From Anaerolineae bacterium (GTDB lineage: Bacteria > Chloroflexota > Anaerolineae > B4-G1 > DUEL01), in contig JBMFKS010000001.1 in NCBI GenBank assembly GCA_049972045.1, positions 11,536 through 75,535 of the forward strand: 64,000 nt of DNA, written 5' to 3'. The position numbers were made by a program, and so were the translations under genes. Shown piece by piece: positions 15,704-58,270 of the stretch; position 1 is the first letter of the stretch; each line of letters opens with the position of its first letter. The notes below the pieces were generated by a model that was not told the DNA's origin, did no database searches, and was given only the letters and a program-made list of their open reading frames with translations.

Positions 15704-15720
15704 CAAAGATCGCCTCTAGT

Positions 15721-15848
15721 GGTCAGTCAAGTTTGTACTTATGGGTCCGAATGGCCGACGCGGCCAGGGGCCCACCAGGCGTAGGGCAACTGTGAGCAGT
15801 TGCCCTCCTGGAGGGCGCAAAGACCCACAAAAGGGCGGTTGACAAACC
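15721..15848 (+). repeat. MITE-like ~128-bp repeat element, copy A
   Basis: ggtcagtcaagtttgtacttatgggtccgaatggccgacgcggcc...GGGCAACTGtgagCAGTTGCCC...gacccacaaaagggcggttgacaaacc contains a perfect 9-bp hairpin and a terminal TTGACA. Copies at 32086-32185 (-) and 63305-63432 (+). Confidence 0.65.
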
Positions 15849-15984
15849 ATTAGACACAGAAAGAGTTCTGGGTACAGGATACCCGACTTGCTGGTGGAGC
15901 GCAGGGGGCGGTATGAGTGTTCGGGACTTTTACCCGTACGCCTTTATGGGATTCAACACACCCTTTGAGGTTCCCCAACTCCGC

Positions 15985-23915: not shown

Positions 23916-26900
23916 CTATCCCGCTACCGGCAGGGTGAAGGTAAACGTGCTTCCTTTACCTGGCTCGCTCTCCACCCAAATTTGACCGCCCTGGAGTTCC
24001 ACCAGACTCCGGGTGATGACCAGCCCCAGACCGGTGCCGGGCACGCTCCGCACCATCGGATGCTGGGAGCGGAAAAACTTGGTGAACAGTCGCTCCTGCT
24101 CCTCAGGTGAAATACCGATGCCCGTATCGGAAACGGAACAGACCACAAATCCGCCGTCCGGATGAACGGTTACCCGGATGTGGCCTTCCTCGGGGGTGTA
24201 CTTGTACGCGTTACTCAGCAGATTGGTCAGAATCTGCACCACCCGGTTCCGGTCCGCCTTCACGGGAGGCAACGGTTCCGCGATTTCCACCTCCAGCGTC
24301 TGCCGTTTGGCCTCTACCTCCTGGCGGATCATCCGAACGGCCTCCTCTACGGCCTCCCGCAACGCGACCTGCCCGATTTCCAGCCGCAGTCGCCCCGCCT
24401 CAATCCGGGACATATCCAGCAGTTCCTGCACCATTGTGTCCATCCGGTTCACGTTGGAACGGATGACTTCCAGGAACGACCGCTGGGTCTCGGTCAGGTC
24501 GCCCGCCAACCCCTTGACCAGCAGGTCGGTGTAGCCCTTGATCGCCGTCATCGGCTGTTTCAGTTCGTGGGAGACGAAGGAGATGAATTCCGTCTTGGCC
24601 TGGTTGGCGGCCTCCACCGCGGCGAAGAGGCGGGCGTTCTCTATCGCGATGGCCGCGTGATCGGCCAGGCGAACGACGAAATCCAGGGCATCCTGGTCAA
24701 ATTGTCCCGGCCGGGCGCTCTCCAGCACGATGACACCGATAATCCGTTCCTCTCGCCAGATGGGCACCGTCATCTGGGCAACCATTCCGTCCACAGCGGC
24801 CACGTAATCGGGGTCGTTGCGAACATCGGAGACCAGTTCGGGCCGACCCGTCCGGGCTATCCGTCCCACGATGCCCCGGTCCAGCGGCCAGAGGGTCTCC
24901 CGGTACGGCTCCACGGAGTCCGGGGGGTAGCCCCGGTAGGCCAGAAGCCGCAGGCCCCGCCGGCCGTCCTCCTCGTCCAAGACGGCCAGCAACCCGACAT
25001 CGGCGCCCGTCCGCTGAATGGCCCATTCCAGAGCCGTTTCCATCGTCTGCTGATAATCCAGCGTGGCGTTCAATTCCCGGTCAATCCGCTGCATCATGGA
25101 GAGTTCCTCCACCCGGGCCGCCAGCGCCTGGTCGGTCATGGCGAAGAGACGGGCGTTCTGGATGGCCACGGCCGCCTGCGCGGCCAGAGCGGTCAGCAAT
25201 CGTTCGTCGTCCTCATCAAAGGGGCGACCGTCCCGCCGATTGAGCATCTCCAGGGCGCCGATGACCGTCCCGTGAGCCGTCATGGGAGCACAGAGGAGCG
25301 AACGGGTGACAAACCGGGAGCGGCGGTCTACGTCCGCATACCAGTGCTTGTCCTGCCGGACATCGTCCACCCGGATGGGGCGGTTCTCCCGGACGACCTG
25401 TCCGGCGATGCCGGCACCGGCGGTCAGGCGGGTACCGGCGAGGTCGGGCGCGCCCACGGCGACCTGAAAGACCAGATCTCCGCTCTCTTCGTCCACCAGC
25501 AAGAGGGAGCCCGCCTCCGCCTGCAGGAGGTCTACCGCTTTCCGGATGGTCAGGTCCAGCAGGCTGTTCAGGTCCAGCGTAGACGCCAGGAGATGGCCCA
25601 CCTCATTCAGCCCCTCCAGCCGCCGGGCCCATTTTTCCGTCTCCTGATAGAGGCGGGCCTTATCCAGAATGGCCGCGGCCTGGTCGGCGATGACCTGGAA
25701 CACCCGCACCTGCTCCGCTGTATACGTCACATCGGGGTCAAAACTGGAGATATTGATGACGCCCAGGATGCGGTCCTGGGAGATGAGAGGCATACCCATC
25801 CAGGCTTTGCCCGGTCGGCCCCCCGGCCGGACCCCCCGACGCTGGCACTCGGCCAGGTAGTCATCGGTCACGATGGGCTGACCGGTGCGGACGATGAGGC
25901 CGGTCAGCCCCTCCGTATCGGACCAGATGTCTTCGGGATACCGCCGTTCACCGTTCTCCACGTAGAAGGCGAAGCGCAGGGTCCGGGTCGGGGGATCGTA
26001 GAGCGCAATGTAGAAGTTGCGAGCGTCCAGTACCCGATTGGTCTGGGTATAGATCAGTTCCATCAGGTCGTCCGGCTGGACGGAGAAGCCCACGGACTGG
26101 GCAATCGTGCCCACCGCTTCCAGTTCCTGGACCCGGCGCTCCAGGTCCGCGATCAAGCGGACGCGGTCCAGCGCGGCGGTGATCTGGGGGGATAGCATCT
26201 CCAGGAACCAGGCATCGCGGGCACGGAAGCGCTCCAGGCGGGTGGGACCGACGGTCAGCCATCCCCATCCGGGCAGGGGGACGAAGAGGGCCGGCCCCAG
26301 GACAGCCAGCCGCTCTTCCTCCTCTTCCAGGTCGGAGGGAAGGATGTCCTCCACCGCAAGGTAAAGAGGACGGGTATCGCCGCTCATCCGACGGGCCAGT
26401 GGTCCGTCGGGGCGAAAAGATGGCAGGGAAGAGGACGAGGCATCACCGAAAACCCGGGGAACGTACAATCCACTGCGCGGGCTGGCCAGGTAGAAGATCA
26501 CAGAACGGGGTGCCAGTACCTGCCCGATGACATCGGCGACGGCCGCTATCACCTCATCCACAGAACGTACGGTGGCCACCCGGTTTCCGAACTCCCGCAG
26601 GGCCCGCTCCGGGGCCATCCGCCGCCCCAGCAACAAACGGTCTATCGCGCGGGTCAGCAGCCCGCGCAGGGGCAGAATTCCCATCCCCACCACCAGCACC
26701 AGCAGGGCCAGCACCAGCGGCTGAAAGGGGAGAATGGTCAGGTGGAACCACCGGCCCAGGAGGGCCAGGAGCAGGGCAAATATGCCCACCACGGCCAGCG
26801 TCAGGAGAAGGTAAATCGCCGCGTTGCGGACCACCCAGTCAATGTTCAGTGTGCGGGGGAAGAGAATGGCGTAGGCGATGGCCAGGGGGAAGAAGACAAA

Positions 26901-27881
26901 GGACGGCAGCAGCAGGCTGGGCTGGAAGGGGAAGCCGGGCCGGAAGGCAAAGGGAATCCAGACCATTATCGGGAAGAAAGAAAGCAGAGCCCCCAGCAGG
27001 ACAATGTAGGTCTGGGCCCGGATGATGGGGGAGCGGGAGAAGAGCCGGTGGTAGGCCATCAGGCCGATGAGCACCAGCCCGCCGATGCCCGCCCAGGCCC
27101 GCCCCCATCGCCAGGGAGCGAAGTAGGCGATGGGGTGGGCCATGTCCGCCGTGGTGAGCCACCCGGCGACCGTCAGTCCCAGCGCGGGCAGGTAGACCAG
27201 CAGACGCAGCCACGGGAACCGTCGCAGCACAGGAGGCGGCTGGGGGAAAACCAGAGCCAGGTGGGCCGCCGCGCTTCCGGCCAGCGGCACCGCGGCAACC
27301 CAGACCGGGAACAGGCGATGAGTGGTGTACAGGTCAAAAAAGAGGCCCGTCACCAGCGCGATGAAGATGCAGAAGAGGGCAAAAATCTGCCCCGACTCTT
27401 CCCGCCCCCGCCGCCAGAGCATCACTCCCCCGGCGGCCAGATAGAACAGGCCCAGGGCATAAGGAATGATGAAGAAGTCCCAGAGGACCAGCCGGGGGAG
27501 GGAAGTCAGGGAGACCCGAACCTGACGGACGGCGCCCGTCTCCGCGTGGCGCGCGGTGAAGGTGACAGTCTCTCCGACCTGGCGATGATGCAGAGCCTCT
27601 ATCAGCGCGGGGGGACGGTCCAGCGGCTCCCCATCTATGGCGACCAGTTGTTCGGGCAGGCTCAGGCCGGCCGCGTACCCGCCCCAGGACATAGAGCCGA
27701 TGTTGTTCACTACCAGCGTCGGTTCGGTGAAGAGGCCGGGGAAAGGGAGGCGGACGGTCTGGAGCGCCAGCACGGCGGCCCAGACCAGGATGACAGCGGA
27801 GAAGGCCGAGAGGGCCGCCAGGAACCCGCGGACCAGTTGCCGGAAAGGAGTCTTCGGGAAGTCAGAACCCGAATGGGCCAT
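23916..27881 (-). CDS. multi-domain sensor histidine kinase (PDZ-like, ~10 TM, multiple GAF, HisKA, HATPase_c)
   Basis: It starts with a PDZ-like segment and hydrophobic helices, then several GAF domains. It ends with HisKA (SHELKQPMTAIKGYTDLL) and HATPase (GTGLGLVITRSLVELQGG). An alternative upstream start at 28016 is possible. Confidence 0.8.
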   Translation of the reverse strand: MAHSGSDFPKTPFRQLVRGFLAALSAFSAVILVWAAVLALQTVRLPFPGLFTEPTLVVNNIGSMSWGGYAAGLSLPEQLVAIDGEPLDRPPALIEALHHRQVGETVTFTARHAETGAVRQVRVSLTSLPRLVLWDFFIIPYALGLFYLAAGGVMLWRRGREESGQIFALFCIFIALVTGLFFDLYTTHRLFPVWVAAVPLAGSAAAHLALVFPQPPPVLRRFPWLRLLVYLPALGLTVAGWLTTADMAHPIAYFAPWRWGRAWAGIGGLVLIGLMAYHRLFSRSPIIRAQTYIVLLGALLSFFPIMVWIPFAFRPGFPFQPSLLLPSFVFFPLAIAYAILFPRTLNIDWVVRNAAIYLLLTLAVVGIFALLLALLGRWFHLTILPFQPLVLALLVLVVGMGILPLRGLLTRAIDRLLLGRRMAPERALREFGNRVATVRSVDEVIAAVADVIGQVLAPRSVIFYLASPRSGLYVPRVFGDASSSSLPSFRPDGPLARRMSGDTRPLYLAVEDILPSDLEEEEERLAVLGPALFVPLPGWGWLTVGPTRLERFRARDAWFLEMLSPQITAALDRVRLIADLERRVQELEAVGTIAQSVGFSVQPDDLMELIYTQTNRVLDARNFYIALYDPPTRTLRFAFYVENGERRYPEDIWSDTEGLTGLIVRTGQPIVTDDYLAECQRRGVRPGGRPGKAWMGMPLISQDRILGVINISSFDPDVTYTAEQVRVFQVIADQAAAILDKARLYQETEKWARRLEGLNEVGHLLASTLDLNSLLDLTIRKAVDLLQAEAGSLLLVDEESGDLVFQVAVGAPDLAGTRLTAGAGIAGQVVRENRPIRVDDVRQDKHWYADVDRRSRFVTRSLLCAPMTAHGTVIGALEMLNRRDGRPFDEDDERLLTALAAQAAVAIQNARLFAMTDQALAARVEELSMMQRIDRELNATLDYQQTMETALEWAIQRTGADVGLLAVLDEEDGRRGLRLLAYRGYPPDSVEPYRETLWPLDRGIVGRIARTGRPELVSDVRNDPDYVAAVDGMVAQMTVPIWREERIIGVIVLESARPGQFDQDALDFVVRLADHAAIAIENARLFAAVEAANQAKTEFISFVSHELKQPMTAIKGYTDLLVKGLAGDLTETQRSFLEVIRSNVNRMDTMVQELLDMSRIEAGRLRLEIGQVALREAVEEAVRMIRQEVEAKRQTLEVEIAEPLPPVKADRNRVVQILTNLLSNAYKYTPEEGHIRVTVHPDGGFVVCSVSDTGIGISPEEQERLFTKFFRSQHPMVRSVPGTGLGLVITRSLVELQGGQIWVESEPGKGSTFTFTLPVAG

Positions 27882-28047
27882 CCGATGCTCCGGGCACGTT
27901 GTTTCTTTTCCAACAACCACGAAAAACCACGAAGGACCCGAAGGGACACGGATTTTCTGCCCCCTCAGGATTCTTCGTGTCCTTTGTGGACTCTTTACGC
28001 CCTTGGTAGCAGGCAATTGTTAAATTGTAGCACATTATCGCCAGGCG

Positions 28048-29085
28048 TCAACGGCCAAAAAGTACCCAGGACATCCCTAAAGCCAGCAAGGTATTGAAGA
28101 GCGTGGCCGCCAGGTACACCAGGAGCGGGCGAAGGCCGATTTTCCGCAGTTCGCCGAAGGAGAGTTGCCAGCCGATGCCGATGAAGGCCAGGGTGAACGC
28201 CCAGTTGCGCAGAGCGGTGATGTCTTTCACCTGGGCTTTAGTGAAAAGCCCCACCGAGGCCAGCACCGATACGGCGAGAAACCCCAGGACGAACTTGGGG
28301 AAGCGCTCCCAGATCATCCGCGCGCTGGGGCGACCGGCGGTAGCCCCTTCCTCCTTGGCCACCCAGTACAGGGCCAGGAGAAACGCCACCACACCGATCA
28401 GGGCGTTCTGGGCCATTTTGACGATGGACGCCACCCTGACGGCCTCCTCGCCGTAGATGGCTCCGGCGCCGACCACGGCGGCGGTGGTGTCTATGTTGCC
28501 GCCGAACCAGGCCCCGGCCCAGGCAGGGGACATGCCGGTCGCCGCAGCAATCCAGGGCATCAGCACCATCATCGGCAGAGCGGTGACGATGACCAGCGCG
28601 GTCACGTAGGCCAGTTGCTCCCTTTTGGCAAGAACGGCACCTGCGGCGGCGATGGCCGCCGAGACGCCGCAGATGGAGACCGCGGCACACATCAACGCCC
28701 GCAACTTCTTTTCCAATTGGAGTCGTCCGCCCAGCCACCAGGTAAAGGCGAAGACCAGGGAGACCAAGGCCAGGGCTTGAACCACCCCCCGTGCGCCAAC
28801 GCTGAGAATCTCCCCCAGATTGACGGCTGCGCCCAGCAGGACCAGGCCAATTTTCAGGAAGAGTTCGGCCCGGAAGGCCCTGCCCAGCCGTTCTTTCACT
28901 CCCGCCGCGGCGGCGATGGCGCCCGTCACGAATCCCAGCAGGGCGGCCCACAGGGGATACTCCAGGGCTTTCGGACTGATGGTGGCCAGGCGATGGGTCG
29001 CCCAGGCCAGCGCGACCAGCAAAACCAGTGAGGCGACGAGCCATAATGCCTGTGTCCAGCGGACTGAGAGATGGGAAGAGCCCAT
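28048..29085 (-). CDS. YeiH/UPF0324-family putative sulfate-exporter-like membrane protein
   Basis: 345 aa, ~10 TM, Ala/Gly-rich helices typical of the UPF0324 (PSE) family. Confidence 0.65.
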   Translation of the reverse strand: MGSSHLSVRWTQALWLVASLVLLVALAWATHRLATISPKALEYPLWAALLGFVTGAIAAAAGVKERLGRAFRAELFLKIGLVLLGAAVNLGEILSVGARGVVQALALVSLVFAFTWWLGGRLQLEKKLRALMCAAVSICGVSAAIAAAGAVLAKREQLAYVTALVIVTALPMMVLMPWIAAATGMSPAWAGAWFGGNIDTTAAVVGAGAIYGEEAVRVASIVKMAQNALIGVVAFLLALYWVAKEEGATAGRPSARMIWERFPKFVLGFLAVSVLASVGLFTKAQVKDITALRNWAFTLAFIGIGWQLSFGELRKIGLRPLLVYLAATLFNTLLALGMSWVLFGR

Positions 29086-29258: not shown

Positions 29259-31307
29259 TTATGCCATCTGCTGCGCCACCAGTTCCACCACATCCAGCAC
29301 CCGGACGCGCAACTTCTCCTGCCGGGCCGCACCGGCCAGCGTCCGCTTGCACTGCTGGCAGGCGGAGAGCAGAATCTTCGCCCCCGTGGCCTGCACCTCG
29401 CCGATGCGCCGCTTCGCCACCGCCGCAACCAGGTCCTTATCCGCCATCTCCACGTCCCCGCCGCCGCCGCAGCAGAGGGAGTACTGGTGGTGATGCTCCA
29501 TCTCCACCAGCGTCACCCCGGGGATGGCCCGGATGACCGCCCGGGGCGCTTCGTACACGCCACTGGTCCGCCCCAGATCACAGGGGTCATGGTAGGTGAC
29601 CGTCTCCTCCAGCGGCCGCAGGGGGATGCGCCCCTCGGCCAGCAGTTCCGCCAGCAGTTCCGTCAGGTGCAGGACCTCCAAGCCCAGCGGCTCGCCCAGG
29701 ACGCGCGGGTAGTCGTGTTTCCAGGTGTGGTAGCAGGACGGGCAGGCCGCGACCAGCCGCCGCGCCCCCGTCCGGCGGACCGCGTCCAGGTTGTGCCGCA
29801 TGGTCTCCACCGCCACGTCGCCCATTCCGGCAATGACCAGCGGGAAGCCGCAGCACCACTCCTCCCCACCCAGCGTCAAGTAGTCCACCCCGGCCCGCTC
29901 CAGTACCTGCACCGCGTTCTGGGGGATGGAGTAGGACTGGGGGTAGAAGGACGCGACACATCCTACGAAGAAGACCACCTCCGCCTGCGTCTTCTTGCCG
30001 ACCCCCTCCGGGATTTCGGGCAGGTTCTGGCTCCAGATGAGCCGGTTGGCGTTGTCGTCACCGGAGATGTTGTGGGCCGTCAGGAAAGTCTCCCGGAGAC
30101 GGTCAAAGACCGCCGGGTAGGCGCCCTGCCGGACCAGGTCCTGGCGCATGGCGATCCAGAGTTCGCGGGTTTGGATGTGGGCTGGGCAAACGACGGCGCA
30201 ACGCCCGCAGAGGGTGCAGTCGTACGTGCCGGTGGAGTGGGTCTGGAGCGCCTCCGGCTGGAGCGGGCGGGGGCCGAAGAGCCGGGCCAGAAGCCCGTAC
30301 TGGCCCCGGATGAACCGCCGCACCGCCTCAATCTTGCGCAGCGGCGTGATGGCGTCCAGGTCTGGCTTCTCGGTAAAGGTCGGACACCAGAGGACGCACT
30401 CCCCACAGCGGGTGCAGGCGTCCAGCGCCAGCAGTTCCCGGAAGGTGTAGAGAGCGGGGTCAGGCCGGGACTGGGTACCTCCTATCGCCGGAGCGGTCTC
30501 CGCCTCCTGTACCCGATTCACCGTGGCGGTCAATGCCGTGGCGACCGCGTGCAGAAACTTGGAGTACGGAATGGTGACGATGACGAGAGAGACCAGCAGG
30601 CCGTGGCCCACGTAGAATCCGTCGGCGAGATGTTCCCAGGGGAGATTCCAGCCCGCCAGCAGGCGGGCGAGGGGGTAGCCGATAAACGCCATATAGGGCG
30701 CGGGGCCGTCATAGCGGGCGTTCAGGCGGACAACCTCCGCAATCCAGCCCGTGAGCAGAATCAGCCCCAGCGCGACCACCATCCAGGTATCCATCGCGCC
30801 GGTCCGAAGTTGGGAGGGGCGGGCCAGATACCGCCGGACGATGTAGAAGATCAGGCCGGCAGTCATCATCAACCCACCGATCTCATTGAGGAGCGCGGTA
30901 ACCGGGTGGTCAGCGGTGTACCACATGGCTATCCAGGGGATATGCCCCAGGTGGAACAAGTGGTAGAGCACCTTTTCCGAGAGGGCGGCCAGACCGGAGA
31001 GCGTCATCAGCAGGAGAAATCCGTTCAGCAAGAGAAAGTGGCTTGCCCACCGCCAGCGGCTGGTCCGCCAAAGGCGGCGGTTGAACCAGGCTTCGGTGAT
31101 AAAGGCTTTCAGAATAGCGGGGAACTGGCGGCTGAAGATGGCCCGCAGTGCCCGGTTCAGCAAGCTCAGAAATTTTCGCCAGGCCGAGACGGTGTTGCTC
31201 CCTTCCACCCGTCCCTGAAGCCAGATGCCCACCACATCGGCCAGGCCGATCAGGAAGAGGAGCATCAGGGGAAGATGGATCACCCAGAAAAGGGTTTCAA
31301 CGTTCAC
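29259..31307 (-). CDS. HdrE/NarI-like membrane domain fused to HdrD-like Fe-S/CCG-domain oxidoreductase
   Basis: ~260-aa polytopic N-terminal domain. Then 2x[4Fe-4S] motifs (CTRCGECVLWCP; CTLCGRCAVVCP) and two CCG domains (VGCVASFYP...WCCGFP; CPSCYHTWK...HDPCDL...CCGGGG). Confidence 0.75.
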   Translation of the reverse strand: MNVETLFWVIHLPLMLLFLIGLADVVGIWLQGRVEGSNTVSAWRKFLSLLNRALRAIFSRQFPAILKAFITEAWFNRRLWRTSRWRWASHFLLLNGFLLLMTLSGLAALSEKVLYHLFHLGHIPWIAMWYTADHPVTALLNEIGGLMMTAGLIFYIVRRYLARPSQLRTGAMDTWMVVALGLILLTGWIAEVVRLNARYDGPAPYMAFIGYPLARLLAGWNLPWEHLADGFYVGHGLLVSLVIVTIPYSKFLHAVATALTATVNRVQEAETAPAIGGTQSRPDPALYTFRELLALDACTRCGECVLWCPTFTEKPDLDAITPLRKIEAVRRFIRGQYGLLARLFGPRPLQPEALQTHSTGTYDCTLCGRCAVVCPAHIQTRELWIAMRQDLVRQGAYPAVFDRLRETFLTAHNISGDDNANRLIWSQNLPEIPEGVGKKTQAEVVFFVGCVASFYPQSYSIPQNAVQVLERAGVDYLTLGGEEWCCGFPLVIAGMGDVAVETMRHNLDAVRRTGARRLVAACPSCYHTWKHDYPRVLGEPLGLEVLHLTELLAELLAEGRIPLRPLEETVTYHDPCDLGRTSGVYEAPRAVIRAIPGVTLVEMEHHHQYSLCCGGGGDVEMADKDLVAAVAKRRIGEVQATGAKILLSACQQCKRTLAGAARQEKLRVRVLDVVELVAQQMA

Positions 31308-31402
31308 AAAACACCCCCGTAGAGCGAGATGGGATGCCCCAATAGCGCGCTCAATTATCCCCCCAGAGGCACCTTTGGGAGTACTGTCCGCGACGGGCTG
31401 GA

Positions 31403-31834
31403 CTACCCCAGCAGGCTCTTGTACTTTGCCGCCTCCTCTTCAATGAAGGCGCGAAATTCGGGGGAATCCGCCCGGAAAAGGTTGTTCAGTTCCGCCGGGT
31501 TGGACATCTCAATCTTGACCAGCCAGCCCTGGTCAAAGGGAGACTGGTTGATCAGAGAGGGCTCAAATTCCAGTTCCTCGTTGACGGCGACGATCTTGCC
31601 GCTGACGAGCGCGGGGACACGCCCAACCCACTTGCCGGACTCCATAGACATAAAGGTCTGGCCCTGGGTGACGGCTTTCCCCACGGGGGGGATTTCCACG
31701 TAGACAATCTCCTTGGCGATGCGCTGACCGAAATCGGTCAAGCCCTGGACCACGATGTTGCCCTCCACCCGGGCCCAGTTGTGCTGTTTGTCGTAGTAGA
31801 GGTCATCGGGAAATTCAATACCGGCGATCTGCAT
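31403..31834 (-). CDS. gcvH: glycine-cleavage H-protein-like lipoyl carrier
   Basis: The NWARVEGN...GLTDFGQ...SMESGKWVG lipoyl-lysine region fits the GcvH fold. No gcvT/gcvP in the window. Confidence 0.75.
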   Translation of the reverse strand: MQIAGIEFPDDLYYDKQHNWARVEGNIVVQGLTDFGQRIAKEIVYVEIPPVGKAVTQGQTFMSMESGKWVGRVPALVSGKIVAVNEELEFEPSLINQSPFDQGWLVKIEMSNPAELNNLFRADSPEFRAFIEEEAAKYKSLLG

Positions 31835-32085
31835 GGCGCGCCTCCTATTTCAGGTTGATCCAGGCATTTTTATACCCGGACAAGCCGAATTGTCAAGCCT
31901 GGCACTCCCGAGGTTTATCCCACATGCGACGCACCGTACAGTGCGTCGCATTTTGCGACTTCGCCCTCCACCGATGCCCGCCGGCCCTGTGGGTGTTCAA
32001 AGAAAGGCCGATTCCCTATCGCGCCCGTGTTGGCGGGAGAGCCTGCCCCGAATCAGACCCGAATTTTGACGGCACACCCCTACTG

Positions 32086-32185
32086 GTTTGTCAACCGCAC
32101 TTTTGTGGGTCTTTGCGCCCTCCAGTAGGGCAACTGCGAGCAGTTGCCCTACGCTTCGGACCCATCAGCATAAACTTGACTGACC
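32086..32185 (-). repeat. MITE-like repeat element, copy B (shorter, internally deleted)
   Basis: The reverse complement matches copies A/C, including GGGCAACTGctcgCAGTTGCCC, ...gacccacaaaagtgcggttgacaaacc and ggtcagtcaagttta. It lacks the ~27-bp tggccgacgcggcc segment. Confidence 0.55.
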
Positions 32186-32186
32186 C

Positions 32187-33455
32187 CTACGACCGCCCGC
32201 CCGCGGGCAGGAAGCGCCGCACCGTGCGCAGCAGGTGGTCGGGGTCTATGGGTTTGCTGATCCAAGCATCTATCGGGATATGCAGATCGTCGGGCAGAAG
32301 GCCGGCATACTGACTGCTGTCTATGCTGGAGACCATCACCACTGGGATGGTCCGCAGTATCAGGTCGGCGGCCATCTCCTGCGCGACGGCGACACCTTCC
32401 AGCGGTGTCGCCATCATCACGTCCAGCAACACCAGGTCCGGCTTCTCCTCCCGCATCACCCGCAAGGCTTCCGCTCCGTCACGAGCCGCGCTGACCCGGT
32501 AACCGGCCTGGACGAGAATCCGGCGGCTCAGGTCCACGAAGTCCGGGTCGTCGTCCACCACCAGAATCCGCGGCGCTACGCCTGGTTTGACCTCTACTTT
32601 CTTCTTCGGCCGCAAGTAGCTGAACCAGTAGGTCAATCCGACAAGCCCGGCGCCGCCGATGATGTTCCCGATGGTCACCGGCAGGAGGTTCCGCAGGAAG
32701 AAAGCCCCCCAGGTCAGCGCCGCGAAGTCGGCCGGGGTCTTCCCCACCGTCTCCCAGAAGGCTGACGGTGCCCACGCCTTGATGAATAGGCCGATGGGGA
32801 TCAGGTACATGTTGGCTACACTGTGCTCAAACCCGGCGGCCACAAAGGCTGTGATGGGGAAGATAATGGCGAGAATCTTGTCGGTGGTGGAGCGAGCCGA
32901 CGCGCAGAGCCACACGGCCAGACAGACCAGTGCGTTACACATCACGCCCAGCGCAAGGGCCTGCAGGAAGCCCAGGCTGCATTTCGCGCTGGCGATGCTC
33001 AGCGCGTTGAGCCCGATCGCTCCGGAGGCAAAGGTATACTGCCCGGTGAGGAACATCAGCAAAGCGGTCAGAACGGACCCGACGAAGTTGCCCAGGTAGA
33101 CGATGCTCCAGTTGCGCAGCAGTTGGGCCGTGGTGACTCGGCGACTGGCATAGGCCATCACGATGAGGTTGTTGCCGGTGAAGAGTTCGGCCCCGGCCAC
33201 CACGACGGCGATCAGGCCGAGGCAGAAGACCAGACCGCCGACCAGCCGGATCAGCCCGTAAGGAACACCGGCCGCGCCGAGGCCCGTTGTGACTGTCGTC
33301 AGGAAAATGCCCCCCGTGGCGATAAACGCGCCGGCAAGAACCGCCAGGGAGAACATCGTCCAGAAATCCAGATTCGCCTTCGTGACGCCGACTTCTTCCA
33401 TTCGGCTGGCCATCTTCGCCGGTGGGTAGGCATCAATCTGCAATTCGTTGCTCAT
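32187..33455 (-). CDS. formate/nitrite transporter (FNT) family channel fused to C-terminal response-regulator receiver (REC) domain
   Basis: N-terminal FNT signature ...GGLVFCLGLIAVVVAGAELFTGNNLI... with 6 TM. C-terminal CheY-like REC (ILVVDDDPDFV...DLVLLDVMM...ISKP). GGAGGAG RBS before the ATG at 33455. Confidence 0.75.
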   Translation of the reverse strand: MSNELQIDAYPPAKMASRMEEVGVTKANLDFWTMFSLAVLAGAFIATGGIFLTTVTTGLGAAGVPYGLIRLVGGLVFCLGLIAVVVAGAELFTGNNLIVMAYASRRVTTAQLLRNWSIVYLGNFVGSVLTALLMFLTGQYTFASGAIGLNALSIASAKCSLGFLQALALGVMCNALVCLAVWLCASARSTTDKILAIIFPITAFVAAGFEHSVANMYLIPIGLFIKAWAPSAFWETVGKTPADFAALTWGAFFLRNLLPVTIGNIIGGAGLVGLTYWFSYLRPKKKVEVKPGVAPRILVVDDDPDFVDLSRRILVQAGYRVSAARDGAEALRVMREEKPDLVLLDVMMATPLEGVAVAQEMAADLILRTIPVVMVSSIDSSQYAGLLPDDLHIPIDAWISKPIDPDHLLRTVRRFLPAGGRS

Positions 33456-33881
33456 AGGTCTCCTCCTGTTCTGGGATTGCCTATCCGACAGGCTCCCCTG
33501 GGGAAAGCCCCCTGAGGATACGAAGCATTGACGTGATCCCATCGTGTTTGTCAAAGCCATTCGTCTCTCTTCGGATAGCCCGAAGAACTTCGCTGAATCA
33601 GCCCGACGGTTGACCGTCGGGCGAAAAAGGGCATCCCCGATAACATTGGGGTACCAACGGCGTAAGTCCTACGGGAAACAACAGGGACGGTGTTCCTCTC
33701 TTCATAATATCCTGAATTGCCTCATGGGCAAGTGACAATGATCCATCTGATGGATGACGTTTATCCTTGCGGCCCTTCGTCTCGCTCGGGTAGTAGGACA
33801 AGGTAGTAGGACAAGGCTGAGCCTTGTCCTACGGTGTTTCGGCGCTTGACAATCCCCCCGCCCCTGTTAAAATGAGAACCG

Positions 33882-36762: not shown

Positions 36763-37917
36763 ATGCTCCGGAAGATCCTGCTGTTGGCGCTCGCTGCCAT
36801 CCTGGTGCTGCCGCTTTTTGCCGGGTGTAAGCCCAAAGAGGCTGGCCCCATCAAAATCGGCGTGGAACTTCCGCTGACGGGGGACTACGCCTACGAGGGG
36901 CAGGGGATGCTGAAGTCCATCCAGTTGCTGGTGGACCAGACCAATGCGGCTGGTGGGCTGCTGGGCCGCAAGGTGGAACTGGTGGTGGAGGACGACGCCG
37001 GGGATGCCGGCCAGGCCTCTCAGGTAGCCCAGAAACTGGTGGACGCGGGAGTGATCGCCGTCATTGGCGCCTACAACTCCAGCGCCACCGAACCGGCCTC
37101 CGTCATTTACAATCAGGCGGGCATTCTCCACATCACCCCCTCCTCCACCGCCACTCGGCTCACCGAGAAGGGCTTCCAGCGTTTCTTCCGCGTCTGCTTC
37201 CTGGATGACCGGCAGGGGCTCTTCGCGGCCAAGTTCATGAAAGAGGTATTGGGCGCCCAGAAAATCGGCATCCTCCACGACAACTCCACTTACGCCCAGG
37301 GCCTGGCGGAGCACACCAAGCGGTATGCCGAGCAGTTGGGAATGAACGTGGCCTTCTACGACGCCATCAACCCGGCCGATAAGGACTTCACACCCACCCT
37401 GACCCGCATCGGCGGCGCCGGCCTGGATGCCATCTACTTCACCGGTTACCATGCCCAGGGCGGCTTGCTCCTGAAGCAGTCCGGCGACCTGGGGCTGAAA
37501 CTCCGGTGGGTGATGGGCAACGCCTGCAACAACCCGGAGTTGATCCAGATTGCCGGGGTGGAGAACGCGGCGGGGACCTACGTCACCACCGAGCCGCTGC
37601 CGAAGGACGTGAACGTCCCCGAGGCCAAGAAGTACGTGGAGGACTTCAAGGCCCGCTACGGCGAGGAGCCGGCCAGCGTCTGGTGGATGATGGCCGCCGA
37701 GGCCTTCAATGTCATCCGCTACGCGATTGAACAGACCAAGTCCACCGACCCGAAGGTGCTGGCGGAGTTCCTCCATCAGGCCAAGAACATCAACGGCATC
37801 ACCGGCCCCATCCTGGGCTGGGATGAGAAGGGCGACCGCCTGGGCACCATCCATGTGGCCTACATCATCAACGAGAAGGGCGAGTTCATCCTGAACCCGC
37901 AGCAGCCGTCACCGTAG
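36763..37917 (+). CDS. livK: branched-chain amino acid ABC transporter substrate-binding lipoprotein (LivK/LivJ family)
   Basis: Lipoprotein signal (LPLFAGC). Type I periplasmic binding fold motifs (IKIGVELPLTGDYAYEGQ). Confidence 0.85.
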   Translation: MLRKILLLALAAILVLPLFAGCKPKEAGPIKIGVELPLTGDYAYEGQGMLKSIQLLVDQTNAAGGLLGRKVELVVEDDAGDAGQASQVAQKLVDAGVIAVIGAYNSSATEPASVIYNQAGILHITPSSTATRLTEKGFQRFFRVCFLDDRQGLFAAKFMKEVLGAQKIGILHDNSTYAQGLAEHTKRYAEQLGMNVAFYDAINPADKDFTPTLTRIGGAGLDAIYFTGYHAQGGLLLKQSGDLGLKLRWVMGNACNNPELIQIAGVENAAGTYVTTEPLPKDVNVPEAKKYVEDFKARYGEEPASVWWMMAAEAFNVIRYAIEQTKSTDPKVLAEFLHQAKNINGITGPILGWDEKGDRLGTIHVAYIINEKGEFILNPQQPSP

Positions 37918-38013
37918 GCGTTGTGCCCGCCGGGGGGAGTTCGGGGGAGCCCCCGGACTCCCCCCTTTTTGGTATGGGGCACATCCGAGTTGCCGTTCAG
38001 GAGGGCAAATTTC

Positions 38014-38922
38014 ATGCAACAATTGCTCCAGCAACTCATCAATGGCATTACCATCGGCTCTTTCTACGCCCTGGTCGCCCTGGGCTATACGATGGTGTAC
38101 GGCGTGCTGAAACTGATCAACTTCGCCCACGGCGACCTTTTTATGTGGGGGGCTTACATCGGGCTGACCGGACTGAGCATCCTGGTAGCCCTGCTGGGCC
38201 AGGGTGGCCCTCTCTCCATTTTCCCGGTTGCTGTCATTGTGATGGTCACCATCGCGCTGATCGGCGTCCTGATAGAGCGCGTCGCCTACCGCCCCCTTCG
38301 TTCTGCAGGACGCCTGGCGCCGGTCATTTCGGCCCTGGGGGCGGCCTTCATCCTGGAGAGTCTGGCCCGCAACATCTACGGCGCCAGTTGGAAGACCTAT
38401 CCCCCGGGGCTGGTGCCTGCCGGCAAAGTCGCCCTGGTCGGGGGTGTCCGGATCAGCGTGATGCAGGTGTTGGTCCTGGCCGTCTCCTTCCTGCTCATGG
38501 CGCTCCTCTACCTGTTCGTCTACCGCACCCGTATCGGCACCGCTATGCGCGCCGTCTCCCTGGATCACGAGGTCTCCCGGCTGATGGGGATAGATGTGGA
38601 CGGCATCATTGCCACCGTCTTCCTGATCGGCCCGGGCCTGGGCGGGCTGGCAGGGATGATTGTGGCCCTCTACTACGGCTCCTTTGACTTCACCCTGGGC
38701 TGGGTATTCGGGCTGAAGGCCTTTATTTCGGCCATTCTGGGCGGCATCGGCAACATCCCCGGCGCGATGCTGGGCGGGATGATTCTGGGTATCATAGAGA
38801 CGCTGGGGGCCGGATACGTCTCCCCTCAGTGGAAAGATGTCATTGCGTACGTGATCCTCATCCTGATTCTCATCTTCCGCCCCACCGGTCTGTTGGGCGA
38901 GCGCGTGGCGGAGAAACTGTAG
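38014..38922 (+). CDS. livH: branched-chain amino acid ABC transporter permease LivH
   Basis: MQQLLQQLINGITIGSFYALVALGYTMVYGVLKLINFAHGD is the canonical LivH N-terminus. Confidence 0.85.
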   Translation: MQQLLQQLINGITIGSFYALVALGYTMVYGVLKLINFAHGDLFMWGAYIGLTGLSILVALLGQGGPLSIFPVAVIVMVTIALIGVLIERVAYRPLRSAGRLAPVISALGAAFILESLARNIYGASWKTYPPGLVPAGKVALVGGVRISVMQVLVLAVSFLLMALLYLFVYRTRIGTAMRAVSLDHEVSRLMGIDVDGIIATVFLIGPGLGGLAGMIVALYYGSFDFTLGWVFGLKAFISAILGGIGNIPGAMLGGMILGIIETLGAGYVSPQWKDVIAYVILILILIFRPTGLLGERVAEKL

Positions 38923-38934
38923 CGGGAGGGAACA

Positions 38935-39897
38935 ATGGAGAATCTGAGGGAACGTCTTCGGAGGAATCCGCTGATATGGCAGGTCGGCCTGCTGGCCCTG
39001 GCCGTCCTGCTTCCGCTCCCGCTGAACGACTATTACCGCGCGGTGCTCTGGCGCACCGGCATCTATGCCATTCTGGGGTTGAGCCTGAACATCATCGTCG
39101 GCTACGCGGGGCTGTTCCAACTGGGCCACGCCGCTTTCTACGCGCTGGGCGCGTACACGTCGGCGCTCCTCAACCTCTACTTTCACGTCCCCCTCGTCCT
39201 GACCTGGCCCATCAGCATCCTGGTGGCCGCGTTCTTCGGCTACCTGATCTCCCGTCCTATCCTGCACCTGCGCGGCGACTATCTCTGTATCGTGACCATC
39301 GCTTTCGGCGAAGTGGTCCGGCTGGCTCTGGTCAACAACATCTTCGGCATTACCGGCGGGGCCAACGGGCTGAGCGGCATTGACCAGACCGTCCTCTTCG
39401 GCCTGACGCTGCGGACTCCCCTCCACCACTACTACCTGGTCCTCTTCTTCCTGGTCCTGACCCTCTTCGCGGTCCGGCGGCTGGAGAACTCCCGCCTGGG
39501 GCGGGCCTGGATGTATGTCCGGGAGGACGAGACGGCGGCCGAGGCGATGGGGATAGACACGACGTGGGCGAAACTGCTGGCTTTCGTGCTGGGCTCCGGG
39601 TGGGCCGGCCTGGCCGGGGCGCTCTACGTGGCCCGCATCCCTGTCGTCTCCCCGGACCTGGCCCGCTTCATTGAGTCGGTCGTGATGTTCTGCATCGTCG
39701 TCCTGGGCGGTACGGGCTCCATCCCCGGCGTCTTCGTCGGCACCCTGGGGATGATCACCCTGCCGGAAATTTTCCGCTTCCTGAAGACCTGGCGGGATGC
39801 CTGGATGGGCGTGGCGATGGTCGCTATGATGATCGCCCGCCCCGAGGGCCTGTGGCCCAGCCGCCGCATCCGGATGGAGATTCGGGAGGAAGAGTAA
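38935..39897 (+). CDS. livM: branched-chain amino acid ABC transporter permease LivM
   Basis: Polytopic; motifs GYAGLFQLGHAAFYALGAYT are typical of LivM. Confidence 0.85.
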   Translation: MENLRERLRRNPLIWQVGLLALAVLLPLPLNDYYRAVLWRTGIYAILGLSLNIIVGYAGLFQLGHAAFYALGAYTSALLNLYFHVPLVLTWPISILVAAFFGYLISRPILHLRGDYLCIVTIAFGEVVRLALVNNIFGITGGANGLSGIDQTVLFGLTLRTPLHHYYLVLFFLVLTLFAVRRLENSRLGRAWMYVREDETAAEAMGIDTTWAKLLAFVLGSGWAGLAGALYVARIPVVSPDLARFIESVVMFCIVVLGGTGSIPGVFVGTLGMITLPEIFRFLKTWRDAWMGVAMVAMMIARPEGLWPSRRIRMEIREEE

Positions 39898-39918
39898 GCG
39901 CGCAATGAGGGAGGATAG

Positions 39919-40779
39919 ATGGCGCTTCTGGAAATCCGCAACCTGACCAAACAATTCGGCGGCCTGACCGCCGTGGACAACGTCAGTTTCTCCCTGGACG
40001 AGGGGGAGATTCTGGGTCTTATCGGCCCGAACGGGGCCGGGAAGACCACCATCTTCAACCTGATCACTGGGATCTACACCCCGACAGAGGGGGAAATTTT
40101 CTTTAACGGCCACCGGATCGCGCATCCGCCGCTGGGCGCCCGGAAGTTCATCACCCCCGTCTGGTGGTTGCAGGGGGTGCCGGCCCGGTCGGTCCGGGAA
40201 CGATGGGACCAACTGCGGACGCTGCGGCCCCACGAGGTCACCGAACTGGGCATCGCCCGGACGTTCCAGACCATCCGGCTGTTCAAGAATATGACCGTCC
40301 TGGAAAACGTGATGGCGGGCGTCCACCACCGGACCCGGGCCGGTGTCTGGGGGGCCATCTTCCGCCCACCGGCGCAGCGGGAGGAAGAAGCGTTGATCGC
40401 CCGGGAGGCGGAACAGCACATCCGCTTTATGGGGCTTGCGGACTACCGGGACGAACTGGCGAAGAACCTCCCCTATGGCCATCAACGGCGGCTGGAGATC
40501 GCCCGCGCGCTGGCGGCCCGGCCCCGTCTGCTCATCCTGGACGAGCCGGCGGCCGGCCTGAACGAGCAGGAGACGCTGGAACTGATGGACCTCATCCGGC
40601 AGATTCGGGATTCGGGCATCACCGTCCTGCTCATTGAGCATGATATGAAGGTGGTGATGGGCATTTGCGAGCGGATTGTCGTCCTGGACTACGGCAGGAA
40701 GATCGCCGAGGGGACGCCGGAAGAGGTGCAGCGGAACCCGCGCGTCATCCAGGCCTACCTGGGAGAAGAGGGGGTGTGA
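39919..40779 (+). CDS. livG: branched-chain amino acid ABC transporter ATP-binding protein LivG (with ~30-aa insertion)
   Basis: Walker A GPNGAGKTT, Q-loop, signature, Walker B ILDEPAAGLN. An extra segment ITPVWWLQGVPARSVRERWDQLRTLRPHEV sits between Walker A and the Q-loop. Confidence 0.85.
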   Translation: MALLEIRNLTKQFGGLTAVDNVSFSLDEGEILGLIGPNGAGKTTIFNLITGIYTPTEGEIFFNGHRIAHPPLGARKFITPVWWLQGVPARSVRERWDQLRTLRPHEVTELGIARTFQTIRLFKNMTVLENVMAGVHHRTRAGVWGAIFRPPAQREEEALIAREAEQHIRFMGLADYRDELAKNLPYGHQRRLEIARALAARPRLLILDEPAAGLNEQETLELMDLIRQIRDSGITVLLIEHDMKVVMGICERIVVLDYGRKIAEGTPEEVQRNPRVIQAYLGEEGV

Positions 40780-40781
40780 CG

Positions 40782-41495
40782 ATGCCACTCCTGAGGATAG
40801 AGAACCTGCACACTTACTACGGCCATGTCCACGCGCTGAAGGGGATTGACCTGGAGGTGGAGGAGGGGGAGATCGTCACCCTCATCGGGGCCAACGGGGC
40901 CGGCAAAAGCACTACGCTCCGCACCATCTCCGGCCTGGTCCGCCCGCGCGAGGGCCGCGTGGAGTTCAACGGGCAGGTCATCAACCACGTTCCGGCTCAT
41001 CAGATCGTCCAGATGGGGGTCTGCCATGTCCCCGAGGGCCGCCGCATCTTCACCACCCTGACGGTGATGGAGAACCTGATGATGGGGGCCTACACGGTCA
41101 AGGACGAGAGGACGATTCGGGAAAACCTCCAGCGGGTCTTTGACCTGTTCCCTCGTCTGGCAGAGCGGAAGAACCAGTTGGGGGGCACCCTCTCCGGCGG
41201 CGAGCAGCAGATGCTGACTATCGGGCGGGCGCTGATGTCCCGGCCGCGGCTCCTACTGCTGGACGAGCCGTCCCTGGGGCTGGCGCCTCTGCTGGTCAAG
41301 GCCATCTTTGAGACCATCCGGGAGATCAACGCGCGCGGCACCACCATCCTGTTGGTGGAGCAGAATGCCCGCGCCGCGCTGAAGATTGCCCATCGGGCCT
41401 ACGTCCTGGAGACCGGGCGGGTCATCCTCTCCGGACCGGCGCAGGAACTGATGCGGGATGAGCGGGTGAGGAAGGCATATTTGGGGGAAAGATAG
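40782..41495 (+). CDS. livF: branched-chain amino acid ABC transporter ATP-binding protein LivF
   Basis: MPLLRIENLHTYYGHVHALKGIDLEVEEGEIVTLIGANGAGKST...LSGGEQQML...LLLDEP. Confidence 0.85.
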   Translation: MPLLRIENLHTYYGHVHALKGIDLEVEEGEIVTLIGANGAGKSTTLRTISGLVRPREGRVEFNGQVINHVPAHQIVQMGVCHVPEGRRIFTTLTVMENLMMGAYTVKDERTIRENLQRVFDLFPRLAERKNQLGGTLSGGEQQMLTIGRALMSRPRLLLLDEPSLGLAPLLVKAIFETIREINARGTTILLVEQNARAALKIAHRAYVLETGRVILSGPAQELMRDERVRKAYLGER

Positions 41496-41500
41496 GGAGT

Positions 41501-42877
41501 ATGGAGTATGGGGTAGGAAGTAGGATGATGAGTCAGGCGGTGTTGTTTGAAGTGGAGGCCGAGTACGCGGGGGCCGAAGCCCGGAGGCTGGAGCAGAAAT
41601 ATGCCCATCGGATGCGGGAGGAGCTGCGGATGGGCCCCCTGGTCTCGTATGTGGGCAACAAGGAGGTTCCCCTTCTCCGTCTCTACCGCTACAAAGAGGC
41701 CTTCACATTCCGGTTCGTGGACGAGTGGCTCACCCGCTTCGGGGTGAATCGGGAAGACACCGTCTTTGACCCCTTCTGTGGAATGGGCACCACGCTGCTG
41801 GCGGCATCTTGTCGTGGGATATCCGCCATCGGCACCGATCGTCTGCCGGTGGCGGTGCTCATCGCCCGCACGCTGCCGCTTTTCTTTCAGGTCCGCCCGG
41901 GAGAACTGACTCGCATCTTTGAGTGCTTGCAGCACATTGTCCCTTCCGCCGAACCGGCCCCCGTCGCGGCCGACGTGGCCATTATGGGCGTCGCGTTCTC
42001 CCCGGATACTCTGCTGGCCCTGCGGCGCTGGAAGGCCGCCATTGACGGCCTGGAATCGCCGTTCCGGGAGATTTTCCTGCTCCTCTTTTTCTCGGTCCTG
42101 GAGCCCTGTAGTTACACATCTAAAGACGGCCAGTTCCTGCGGTTGAAGCGCACCAAGCGGCCAGCGGATCCGGAGGAGGCGCTGGCGGGAAAAGTGCAGG
42201 AGGCCGAAACGGACATCCGGTGGGTTCGGGAATTGGGCTGGGACATCGCCTTCCGGCCGTTCCGGGTCATTCTCGGCGACACCCGGCGGCTGGACGAGGT
42301 CCCCTTTGATCGCCCTCCGACGGTTATCATCACCTCTCCACCCTATGCCAATCGGTACGACTATACCCGGACCTACTCCCTGGAGCTCTGTTTCCACTTC
42401 GTCCGGAACTTTGACGAACTGAGGGAACTGCGGCACAGCCTGCTCCGTTCCCACATTGAGGCCCGACTTTCGCCTACGGAAGAAGCCCCCCATCCGGCCG
42501 TGCGGGAACTGGTGGACTTTCTGCGAGCGCGCGGCAAAGCGCTGAACAACCCCCGAATCCCGGATATGTTAACCGCGTACTTTGTGGACATGCAGAAAGC
42601 CATCCGGGAGTGGAGGAGAGTGTTGGCCCCTTCGGCACGTGTGGCGATGGTTGTGGACAATGTACGCTTTGAGGGCCGGATGCTTCCGGTGGATCTGATC
42701 CTTTCTGAAATGGCCGAGGAAGAGGGTTTCGCTGTGGAGGAAATCGTCGTCGCTCGGTACAAGGGGAACAGTTCCCAGCAAATGGGCCGCTACGGGCGCG
42801 TCCCGGTCCGGGAGAGTATCGTTGTCTGGAGGAAGCAGGGATGGCTTCGGACTCCCGACATCAAACCTGGTTTCTAG
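41501..42877 (+). CDS. DNA methyltransferase (amino-MTase; motif I FCGMGTT, motif IV SPPY)
   Basis: DPFCGMGTT at ~aa 90 and ITSPPYANRYDY at ~aa 320, separated by a long TRD-like region. SPPY favours N4-cytosine/N6-adenine amino-MTases. Lower GC than flanks. Confidence 0.7.
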   Translation: MEYGVGSRMMSQAVLFEVEAEYAGAEARRLEQKYAHRMREELRMGPLVSYVGNKEVPLLRLYRYKEAFTFRFVDEWLTRFGVNREDTVFDPFCGMGTTLLAASCRGISAIGTDRLPVAVLIARTLPLFFQVRPGELTRIFECLQHIVPSAEPAPVAADVAIMGVAFSPDTLLALRRWKAAIDGLESPFREIFLLLFFSVLEPCSYTSKDGQFLRLKRTKRPADPEEALAGKVQEAETDIRWVRELGWDIAFRPFRVILGDTRRLDEVPFDRPPTVIITSPPYANRYDYTRTYSLELCFHFVRNFDELRELRHSLLRSHIEARLSPTEEAPHPAVRELVDFLRARGKALNNPRIPDMLTAYFVDMQKAIREWRRVLAPSARVAMVVDNVRFEGRMLPVDLILSEMAEEEGFAVEEIVVARYKGNSSQQMGRYGRVPVRESIVVWRKQGWLRTPDIKPGF

Positions 42878-49640: not shown

Positions 49641-49720
49641 TCCCTCCTTATCCCTACTCCCTACTTCCTACTCCCTACTTCCTACTCCCTACTTCCTACT
49701 CCCTACCCTCTACTCCCAGA
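49641..49720. repeat. purine heptamer tandem repeat (mRNA sense GGAGUAG/GAAGUAG, 9 units) spanning the cmr4 stop and cmr5 RBS
   Basis: Plus strand has ctactcc/ctacttc x9 from 49654 to 49716. Every unit carries UAG and a GGAG-like SD. Confidence 0.7.
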
Positions 49721-50703: not shown

Positions 50704-50715
50704 CTCTCTCCTCTC

Positions 50716-57844: not shown

Positions 57845-57919
57845 CTGAGCCTGCCGTTATTATACCAGGTTGGCGGAGGAAGACAACCTCCCCTGATCGT
57901 ATGTCTCATTGCCAGGACT

Positions 57920-58258: not shown

Positions 58259-58270
58259 GCGCCGCAATGC

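Follow-up and report, generated by a model that had tools for sequence, protein, structure and literature searches.

A FocA-type channel carrying a C-terminal CheY-like receiver domain in Anaerolineae: a candidate formate channel under two-component control

How FocA opens and closes, and how it switches between export and import, is a long-standing question. According to PMC5572259, both termini of FocA are cytoplasmic, the Y278-L279-R280 segment of the Escherichia coli protein is essential for formate translocation, and E. coli FocA is controlled post-translationally through the docking of pyruvate formate-lyase (PFL). This answer from E. coli is hard to dissect. Here we analyse a 64,000-nucleotide stretch of DNA from an Anaerolineae bacterium (positions 11,536 to 75,535 of contig JBMFKS010000001.1, assembly GCA_049972045.1), called the window below, in which a single minus-strand gene at 32187-33455, here named focA-REC, joins a FocA-type channel from the FNT (formate/nitrite transporter) family to a CheY-like receiver (REC) domain. 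We judge it probable that the product is a formate channel gated through His-Asp phosphotransfer.

Channels and transporters with fused cytoplasmic ligand-sensing domains are known, for example ClC or MgtE with their CBS pairs. These proteins, like the FNT-CBS and FNT-PilZ fusions discussed below, share with focA-REC a soluble regulatory module on the cytoplasmic end of a pore. Unlike in the CBS and PilZ fusions, the input proposed for focA-REC is covalent His-Asp phosphotransfer, not the binding of a nucleotide or of c-di-GMP. The protein also departs from CheY-like response regulators, in that the receiver has a membrane channel attached on its N-terminal side as effector, instead of a DNA-binding or enzymatic domain.

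The gene lies in one uninterrupted minus-strand frame running from 33560 to 32187, with a TAG stop at 32189-32187; all coordinates within the gene given below are on this strand. Read from the ATG at 33455 it comprises 422 codons plus TAG. This ATG is likely the true start, because a Shine-Dalgarno-like AGGAGGAG (33460-33467, read from the sequence) stands 4 nt 5' of it, homologues start at the equivalent MxNE position in the alignment, and on the identical contigs in public databases the annotated gene likewise encodes 422 aa. A longer 457-aa open reading frame from ATG 33560 was dropped on the same three grounds. Pfam places PF01226 (Form_Nir_trans) at residues 15-278, with E = 3.8e-79 and a score of 265.9 bits (cutoff 34.6) over positions 2-240 of the 240-position profile, and PF00072 (Response_reg) at residues 297-412, with E = 5.9e-19 and a score of 68.7 bits (cutoff 30.2) over positions 1-110 of the 111-position profile. 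One polypeptide thus holds a complete FNT part and a C-terminal REC domain, as a sequence-only reading of this DNA had stated. The receiver motifs quoted in that reading (ILVVDDDPDF, DLVLLDVMM and KP) are present as given, while its FNT motif was one letter off and reads VVVAGAELFTGNNLI. An AlphaFold2 (AF2) model of the whole protein, with 121 sequences as input, has a pLDDT of 83 and a pTM of 0.74, and shows the FNT helix pattern followed by a REC fold. A fold search of the PDB gave no two-domain match, the query-normalised TM-score being 0.62 or lower.

The channel half (residues 1-283, 32607-33455) is supported by TIGR04060, the matches to FocA structures and the AF2 model; the cytoplasmic helix at the N-terminus is part of it. 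It belongs to the FNT family and, as judged from all the sequence tests that could be applied, to the FocA subfamily. The best solved relatives are the Salmonella, E. coli and Vibrio FocA proteins (E about 1e-79 to 1e-76), and by sequence and fold the identity to FocA is 47-51%, versus 26-28% for the hydrosulfide and lactate FNTs. The score with the FocA equivalog model TIGR04060 is narrowly above the cutoff (307.4 versus 290.1 bits), whereas with the enterobacterial FocA model NF008069 it stays below (299.5 versus 440). Superposition of the FNT half of the AF2 model on E. coli FocA 9g49 with Foldseek gives a root-mean-square deviation of 1.6 A at 51% identity, with a target-normalised TM-score of 0.93. 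The predicted helices fit the aquaporin-like fold with six transmembrane (TM) helices, of which TM2 and TM5 are broken, in line with the six helices counted from the sequence earlier. By homology, each protomer would have six TM helices and its two ends in the cytoplasm, and the assembly would be a homopentamer.

The residues that matter in FocA are also kept. Pore residues Thr93 (33177-33179) and His211 (32823-32825) correspond to E. coli T91 and H209 and are invariant in 121 of 121 sequences. Directly after TM6 follows the motif Y280-L281-R282 (32610-32618), with Y found in all 121 sequences, L in 120 and R in 114. In comparison with the FocA structures of E. coli, Salmonella and Vibrio (3kcu, 3q7k, 3kly, 9g49), the protein is alike in the predicted fold, the pore Thr and His, the N-terminal helix and the Y-L-R motif, with about 50% identity over the channel. 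The difference comes after this motif: E. coli FocA ends 5 residues past Y-L-R, whereas the window protein adds a receiver extension of 140 residues.

Only 12 residues separate Y-L-R from the first receiver strand. They form a short basic linker, PKKKVEVKPGVA (residues 284-295, 32571-32606), which is defined by the alignments and is coil in the AF2 model. The REC domain itself (residues 296-416, 32208-32570) is supported by PF00072, its invariant residues and the AF2 model. By FocA homology it would sit on the cytoplasmic face, on the same side as the N-terminal helix. The complete set of residues used for phosphorylation is present, namely D301, D302, the predicted phospho-acceptor Asp345 (32421-32423), S376, the switch aromatic W398, K401 and P402, and every one of them is invariant (121/121). 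Mean identity to the window protein over these sequences is 69% for the REC domain and 78% for the FNT part, and both halves are therefore under purifying selection.

The receiver resembles CheY-like domains such as DivK, PhoP and Spo0F in its residue set and in the predicted elements beta1-5, alpha1-3 and alpha5. Unlike in those, the alpha4 segment (residues 377-396) is modelled as coil with a pLDDT of about 50, and its position is taken by a family-specific, strongly conserved loop, SIDSSQYAGLLPDDLHIPID, as seen in the alignment and the AF2 model. The oligomer to be regulated is also a different one, presumably a pentamer. REC domains usually work by dimerising via the alpha4-beta5-alpha5 face.

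It has to be asked whether the fusion is real. The possibility that two separate genes were joined by an assembly, frameshift or gene-calling error has nothing in its favour and carries a negligible probability. The frame is unbroken, and the exact 422-aa protein occurs with the same synteny on nine independent contigs from four sources (among them JGI, NCBI and ENA); one NCBI copy, in GCA_049970195.1, is labelled 'formate transporter FocA [Anaerolineae bacterium]'. Both Pfam domains are found in 120 of the 120 best-scoring 90%-identity clusters (71-91% identical). A metagenome scan, for which only the junction and the REC region served as the query, yielded 189 confirmed relatives. The whole fusion is one uninterrupted match in 80 of 90 loci examined, most of the others being cut by contig ends; among the 90, L103 alone looks frameshifted and L003 is without the N-terminal part. 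The same junction is kept across 121 clusters and 80 loci. An artefact is thereby ruled out, and the fusion recurs in hundreds of independent assemblies.

The named genomes that carry the fusion (Thermoflexus, Thermoflexales, Anaerolineae) all belong to Chloroflexota. Clustering at 50% identity leaves a single full-length representative of the C-terminal fusion (P0121, 58% identity), which indicates one fairly tight family. In the public databases such proteins are labelled only 'formate transporter FocA' or 'response regulator'. We found no description of an FNT-REC fusion in the searchable literature, although Galperin's response-regulator classification may mention one in passing; a paper on the phylogeny of the FNTs (PMC5525234) is silent on fusions. 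The earlier impression that this is not a described architecture was therefore borne out as far as the searchable literature goes, though in public sequence data the fusion is common and conserved.

We now consider which genes accompany focA-REC in related genomes. The neighbourhoods were compared in 46 non-redundant related loci with at least 2.5 kb on one flank. REC-kinase and/or Cache-kinase orthologues are present in 21 of them, and in 17 the distance to a kinase on the same strand is 800 nt or less. Two kinds of kinase are involved, a REC-HisKA-HATPase protein of ~380 aa and a Cache_3-Cache_2-HAMP-HisKA-HATPase protein of ~650 aa, and the typical gene order is focA-REC, REC-kinase, Cache-kinase, REC-kinase. 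NCBIfam and the PDB match only their kinase cores (AtoS/ZraS-like), so that the linked kinase family is at present unnamed. A kinase pair beside the gene in 21 of 46 loci, together with an intact REC domain, is what a channel connected to a two-component pathway should show, and these data support the suggestion of the sequence-only reading that the channel may be under such control.

At least one gene of the neighbour panel, which comprises the kinases and the redox set described further below, occurs in 34 of the 46 loci, and kinases and redox set occur together in 8. The 12 loci without panel neighbours were spot-checked: two have a convergent REC-HD (HD_5) regulator, and the rest contain unrelated housekeeping genes. 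The REC-HD regulator (HD_5, HD-GYP-like) lies just downstream of focA-REC at 1278-2324 (minus strand) in L094 and at 2769-3986 (minus strand) in L126, both of which are without the kinase pair.

Independent fusions of FNT channels exist elsewhere. REC-FNT proteins with the receiver at the N-terminus are represented by P0143, P0161 and P0181 and by at least 50 clusters at 90% identity, and those with a named source come from Planctomycetota; their public labels are only formate/nitrite transporters. A triple fusion, REC-HisKA-like-HATPase-FNT (672-685 aa), apparently also from Planctomycetota, is found in P0291 and P0294 and at 7001-9058 of L072, where it adjoins a Cache-HAMP kinase, an NtrC-type regulator and a double-REC protein. 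The DD pair, the acceptor D, the K-P pair and the aromatic residue are conserved in 56 independently fused Planctomycetota proteins. Their RECs come closest to the receiver of the REC-kinases from Chloroflexota (42-46% identity); this closeness and the N-terminal position of the domain point to a separate fusion event in Planctomycetota. In the triple fusions, the first 370 residues match the Chloroflexota REC-kinases from one end to the other (31-36% identity, E 1e-54 to 1e-65).

Two of the three Planctomycetota loci examined contain a Cache_3-Cache_2-HAMP kinase that is a full-length homologue of the Chloroflexota one (33-39% identity, E about 1e-110), as well as an NtrC-type regulator and further receivers. 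The Planctomycetota proteins thus resemble focA-REC in their two domain families, their acceptor residues and their linkage to a homologous Cache_3-Cache_2-HAMP kinase, and differ in that the REC is N-terminal and that some members keep a whole kinase. Since Cache-kinase, REC-kinase and FNT are linked in two phyla and fused in three ways, they provide Rosetta-stone-type evidence of working together. That they form a cross-phylum signalling module, one with no description found in the searchable literature, of periplasmic Cache_3-Cache_2-HAMP sensor kinase, REC-kinase and FNT (fused as channel-REC in Chloroflexota and as REC-channel or REC-kinase-channel in Planctomycetota), in which phosphotransfer would directly gate a pentameric anion pore, is a proposition that we regard as evenly balanced.

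Two further types of fusion carry the extra domain at the C-terminus, as focA-REC does. FNT-PilZ is represented by P0125 from Candidatus Magnetominusculus (Nitrospirota) and FNT-CBS by six representatives (P0127, P0131, P0168, P0169, P0180, P0213); for neither was a description found in the searchable literature. The statement that FNT channels normally stand alone is thus broadly true but too strong, as REC, PilZ and CBS fusions to FocA-like channels all exist. Together, these fusions indicate a wider set of ligand-regulated FNT channels. As a separate observation, the gene immediately upstream of the REC-FNT gene in L073 (4509-6953) encodes an 814-aa protein combining REC, 4Fe-4S and pyridine-nucleotide-disulfide oxidoreductase domains, which would be a redox enzyme apparently under direct phospho-control in the same locus.

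With these comparisons at hand, one can consider whether the REC domain is a pseudo-receiver, that is, one that is never phosphorylated and instead acts as a structural, assembly or docking module, for example by recruiting the formate dehydrogenase (Fdh) or Hdr complex in the way that PflB docks on E. coli FocA. The conserved loop in place of alpha4 could be a protein-binding surface, and about half of the informative loci are without an adjacent kinase. However, pseudo-receivers such as FrzS typically lose catalytic residues, while here the DD, D, S, K-P and switch aromatic residues do not vary in the family, most of the same set is retained by the separately fused Planctomycetota proteins, and the kinase linkage recurs in two phyla. 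We therefore consider a pseudo-receiver very improbable.

The proposal of a phospho-gated channel can be formulated as follows. A histidine kinase would phosphorylate Asp345, and the resulting switch in the receiver would shift the Y-L-R tail at the C-terminus, the pore-guarding cytoplasmic helix at the N-terminus, or both. The movement would be transmitted via the conserved beta4-beta5 loop, which would replace the usual alpha4 output face. Formate passage could in this way be opened or closed within seconds, with no new gene expression. In the related Anaerolineae, the signal would most likely come from the adjacent periplasmic-sensing Cache-HAMP kinase and the REC-kinase, the Cache domain possibly sensing external formate, and the channel would serve a cytoplasmic redox module of selenocysteine Fdh, Hdr-like proteins and MvhD. 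We infer the phosphorylation, its effect on gating, the signal that is sensed and the direction of control from the architecture, the intact catalytic residues and the gene linkage in relatives. Concerning the direction, PilZ and CBS domains are ligand-binding inputs to the proteins that carry them, and since they are found in the same place, at the C-terminus, in other FocA-like channels, the added domain is more plausibly the input, with the pore as output.

A number of points weigh against this proposal. The alpha4 helix is not predicted in the model, and a five-fold symmetry is awkward for REC dimers. FNT channels are loose in their selectivity, and the score for TIGR04060 is barely above its cutoff and that for NF008069 below. 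Within the 64-kb window there is no orthologue of the Cache-HAMP kinase or the REC-kinase, only generic kinase-core similarity to two GAF kinases, and no formate dehydrogenase, PFL or hydrogenase (20 further open reading frames). With kinase pair and Fdh both missing from the window, it is from relatives at 65-88% identity that the partner and the substrate are extrapolated to this organism. Finally, the channel could instead be the sensing part, and the REC-kinase-FNT fusions fit a channel acting as sensor equally well.

The last point can be elaborated into a different scheme, in which the FNT pentamer acts as a transceptor or phosphate sink: it would sense formate flux, internal formate or pH, and tune the gain or loss of phosphate by the tethered REC. 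The protein would then drain phosphate from the Cache-kinase/REC-kinase relay, or inform it, and would not be its output. The joining of kinase to channel in the Planctomycetota REC-HisKA-like-HATPase-FNT proteins is in keeping with this, and so is the wealth of extra receivers and kinases at the loci (two REC-kinases, stand-alone RECs, an NtrC-type regulator), which is typical of branched sink relays. A C-terminal REC is, in addition, the position seen in hybrid kinases. On the other hand, the C-terminal PilZ and CBS inputs on other FocA-like channels argue that regulation runs toward the channel, many focA-REC loci have no kinase nearby, and a tether of only 12 residues to the Y-L-R tail, on which translocation depends, would be well suited to controlling the pore. 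We regard the transceptor scheme as unlikely, although it is the most serious of the alternatives to a phospho-gated channel.

We turn next to the substrate, for which the redox genes at the related loci are informative. Hdr-like genes (HdrA/B/C-like, Fer4-CCG, MvhD) are found in 18 of the 46 loci, GcvH and/or lipoate-protein ligase (LplA) in 10, and a [NiFe] hydrogenase in 4. An fdhA-like gene is present in 10 of the 46, or in 14 loci once shorter ones are counted, and in 7 loci its end is 115-655 nt upstream of focA-REC, with both genes on one strand. In the 14 loci it contains a conserved in-frame TGA at codon 138, within the motif HCARL-U-HAPTVAGL, which is the selenocysteine context of E. 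coli FdhF (Sec140 motif). The best solved relatives of its product are all formate dehydrogenases (9t1s, 1.6e-247; 7bkb_D, 1e-209; FDH-H, 8e-185). No pyruvate formate-lyase (pfl) gene was seen in the related loci examined. While control of E. coli FocA is exerted by PFL docking, focA-REC in relatives is linked to Fdh/Hdr genes and histidine kinases.

The set of genes beside focA-REC in relatives resembles the methanogen Fdh-MvhD-HdrABC complex (7bkb), both in the match of the selenocysteine FdhA to 7bkb_D and in the HdrA/B/C-like and MvhD proteins. The hosts are however bacterial (Anaerolineae), and the clusters add GcvH-like and LplA proteins, which hints at a protein-bound lipoyl substrate. 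This combination is a recurrent one: GcvH-like and LplA genes lie by HdrD/HdrABC-like CCG proteins, MvhD and selenocysteine Fdh in several Anaerolineae loci (the window at 29259-31834 on the minus strand, L067, L134, L001-L003, L108 and L095), and suggests that the substrate of an Hdr-like enzyme is a lipoyl disulfide bound to a protein. The formate-linked lipoyl/Hdr gene set resembles the sHdr/lipoate-binding-protein systems of sulfur oxidisers.

The window itself shows a reduced version of this picture. The next gene downstream of focA-REC, at 31403-31834 on the minus strand, encodes a GcvH-like lipoyl-carrier protein (PF01597, E = 4.5e-37), which is 94% identical to the GcvH of the close relative L134. 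It is followed on the same strand by a membrane protein of the HdrD/DsrMK type with a NarI-like TM domain, 4Fe-4S and two CCG domains (29259-31307; Pfam CCG, Fer4_8 and Nitrate_red_gam), which shares 59% identity with the Fer4-CCG protein encoded next to focA-REC in L067, and by a YeiH-family membrane protein (PF03601), a putative sulfate exporter, at 28048-29085 (minus strand), listed here as context only. Unlike the methanogen-type clusters of the relatives, the window is without fdhA, HdrA and MvhD.

These neighbours raise the question whether the phospho-regulated channel conducts something other than formate here, such as hydrosulfide, sulfite- or thiosulfate-related anions, nitrite, lactate, acetate or bicarbonate, and serves the adjacent lipoyl-carrier, HdrD-like and YeiH gene set. 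Neither Fdh nor PFL nor hydrogenase is encoded in the window, the GcvH-like, NarI-Fer4-CCG and YeiH-family neighbours recall the sulfur-oxidising systems just mentioned, and among the solved FNT structures are channels or transporters for hydrosulfide, lactate and bicarbonate. Against this stand the best sequence and fold matches, all of which are FocA proteins (47-51% identity, versus 26-28% for the hydrosulfide and lactate FNTs), the passing of the FocA equivalog cutoff, and the presence of Y-L-R, typical of formate-translocating FNTs. Furthermore, L134 has the same genes contiguous with the Hdr and Fdh set, in the order LplA, GcvH, Fer4-CCG, focA-REC, HdrC, HdrB, HdrA, MvhD, fdhA. We consider a non-formate substrate quite unlikely. 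The substrates listed earlier for this protein were formate, nitrite, hydrosulfide and lactate; the context of the relatives points to formate among them, but that context is not in the window.

As to the kinase, two large GAF kinases had been noted nearby and proposed as partners. One of them, a 3xGAF-HisKA-HATPase protein of 1366 aa (23916-28016, minus strand; Pfam), is indeed close, 4.2 kb and four genes downstream of focA-REC on the same strand. The other, a GAF-PAS kinase of 528 aa (61658-63244), is about 28 kb away. The 1366-aa protein is a partner candidate through proximity only; compared with the kinases linked in relatives it has 31-36% identity over the kinase core only, and is not an orthologue. 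Comparative genomics implicates the Cache-HAMP kinase and the REC-kinase instead, neither of which is in the window.

Directly after the focA-REC stop lies a copy of an intergenic repeat (32080-32186, minus strand; families D1, I2 and I4), which is the MITE-like element that had been noticed there. Other copies are at 15716-15855 and 63300-63439 on the plus strand, and the copies are 92-94% identical to one another. The repeat is about 105-140 nt long and contains a perfect 12-bp hairpin, GTAGGGCAACTG / CAGTTGCCCTAC, whose loop differs among copies, and an embedded TTGACA box; according to the alignment, the copy after focA-REC is without an internal 27 nt. It has a fold z-score of -3.4 and no Rfam match, and could be a terminator, a REP-like element or a mobile promoter. 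No riboswitch or known RNA was found in the leader or the repeat, the Rfam gathering search giving only a tRNA at 6077-6150, and a promoter and terminator scan did no better than on shuffled sequence.

Some other features of the window were also inspected. A 585-aa protein with Complex1 30kDa and 49kDa domains (10273-12030, minus strand) was considered as a HycE-type formate-hydrogenlyase or group-4 hydrogenase subunit and rejected; because it lacks the CxxC nickel-binding motifs, it is taken as a NuoCD-like fusion. Two RAMP-superfamily (CRISPR-associated) genes at 49696-51891 (minus strand), and a DNA methylase with an XcyI-type restriction endonuclease at 41501-43776 (plus strand), belong to defence and are unrelated to focA-REC. 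Two very long open reading frames, at 37909-40788 (minus strand, 959 aa) and 57251-60652 (plus strand, 1133 aa), have no Pfam match and an atypical GC content by codon position, with GC1 above GC3. The first is probably a spurious antisense frame, since it overlaps opposite-strand ABC-transporter genes that are called on identical public contigs.

If focA-REC works as proposed, it would be the first response regulator with a membrane channel as its output domain, and two-component signalling would gain a direct membrane output, in which permeability is controlled without transcription. Nature would then have supplied a FocA whose own switch responds to a chemical trigger and can be driven with BeF3-, acetyl phosphate or D-to-E mutants, a clean handle on FNT gating. 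The linked Cache-kinase family would be a candidate sensor, possibly for formate. To judge from the REC, PilZ and CBS fusions that exist in parallel, FNT channels may often be regulated after translation, in a way that has been overlooked. For the anaerobic Chloroflexota, the exchange of formate, a currency of syntrophy, would be regulated on a scale of seconds and tied to a redox system of selenocysteine Fdh, Hdr-like proteins, MvhD and lipoyl proteins.

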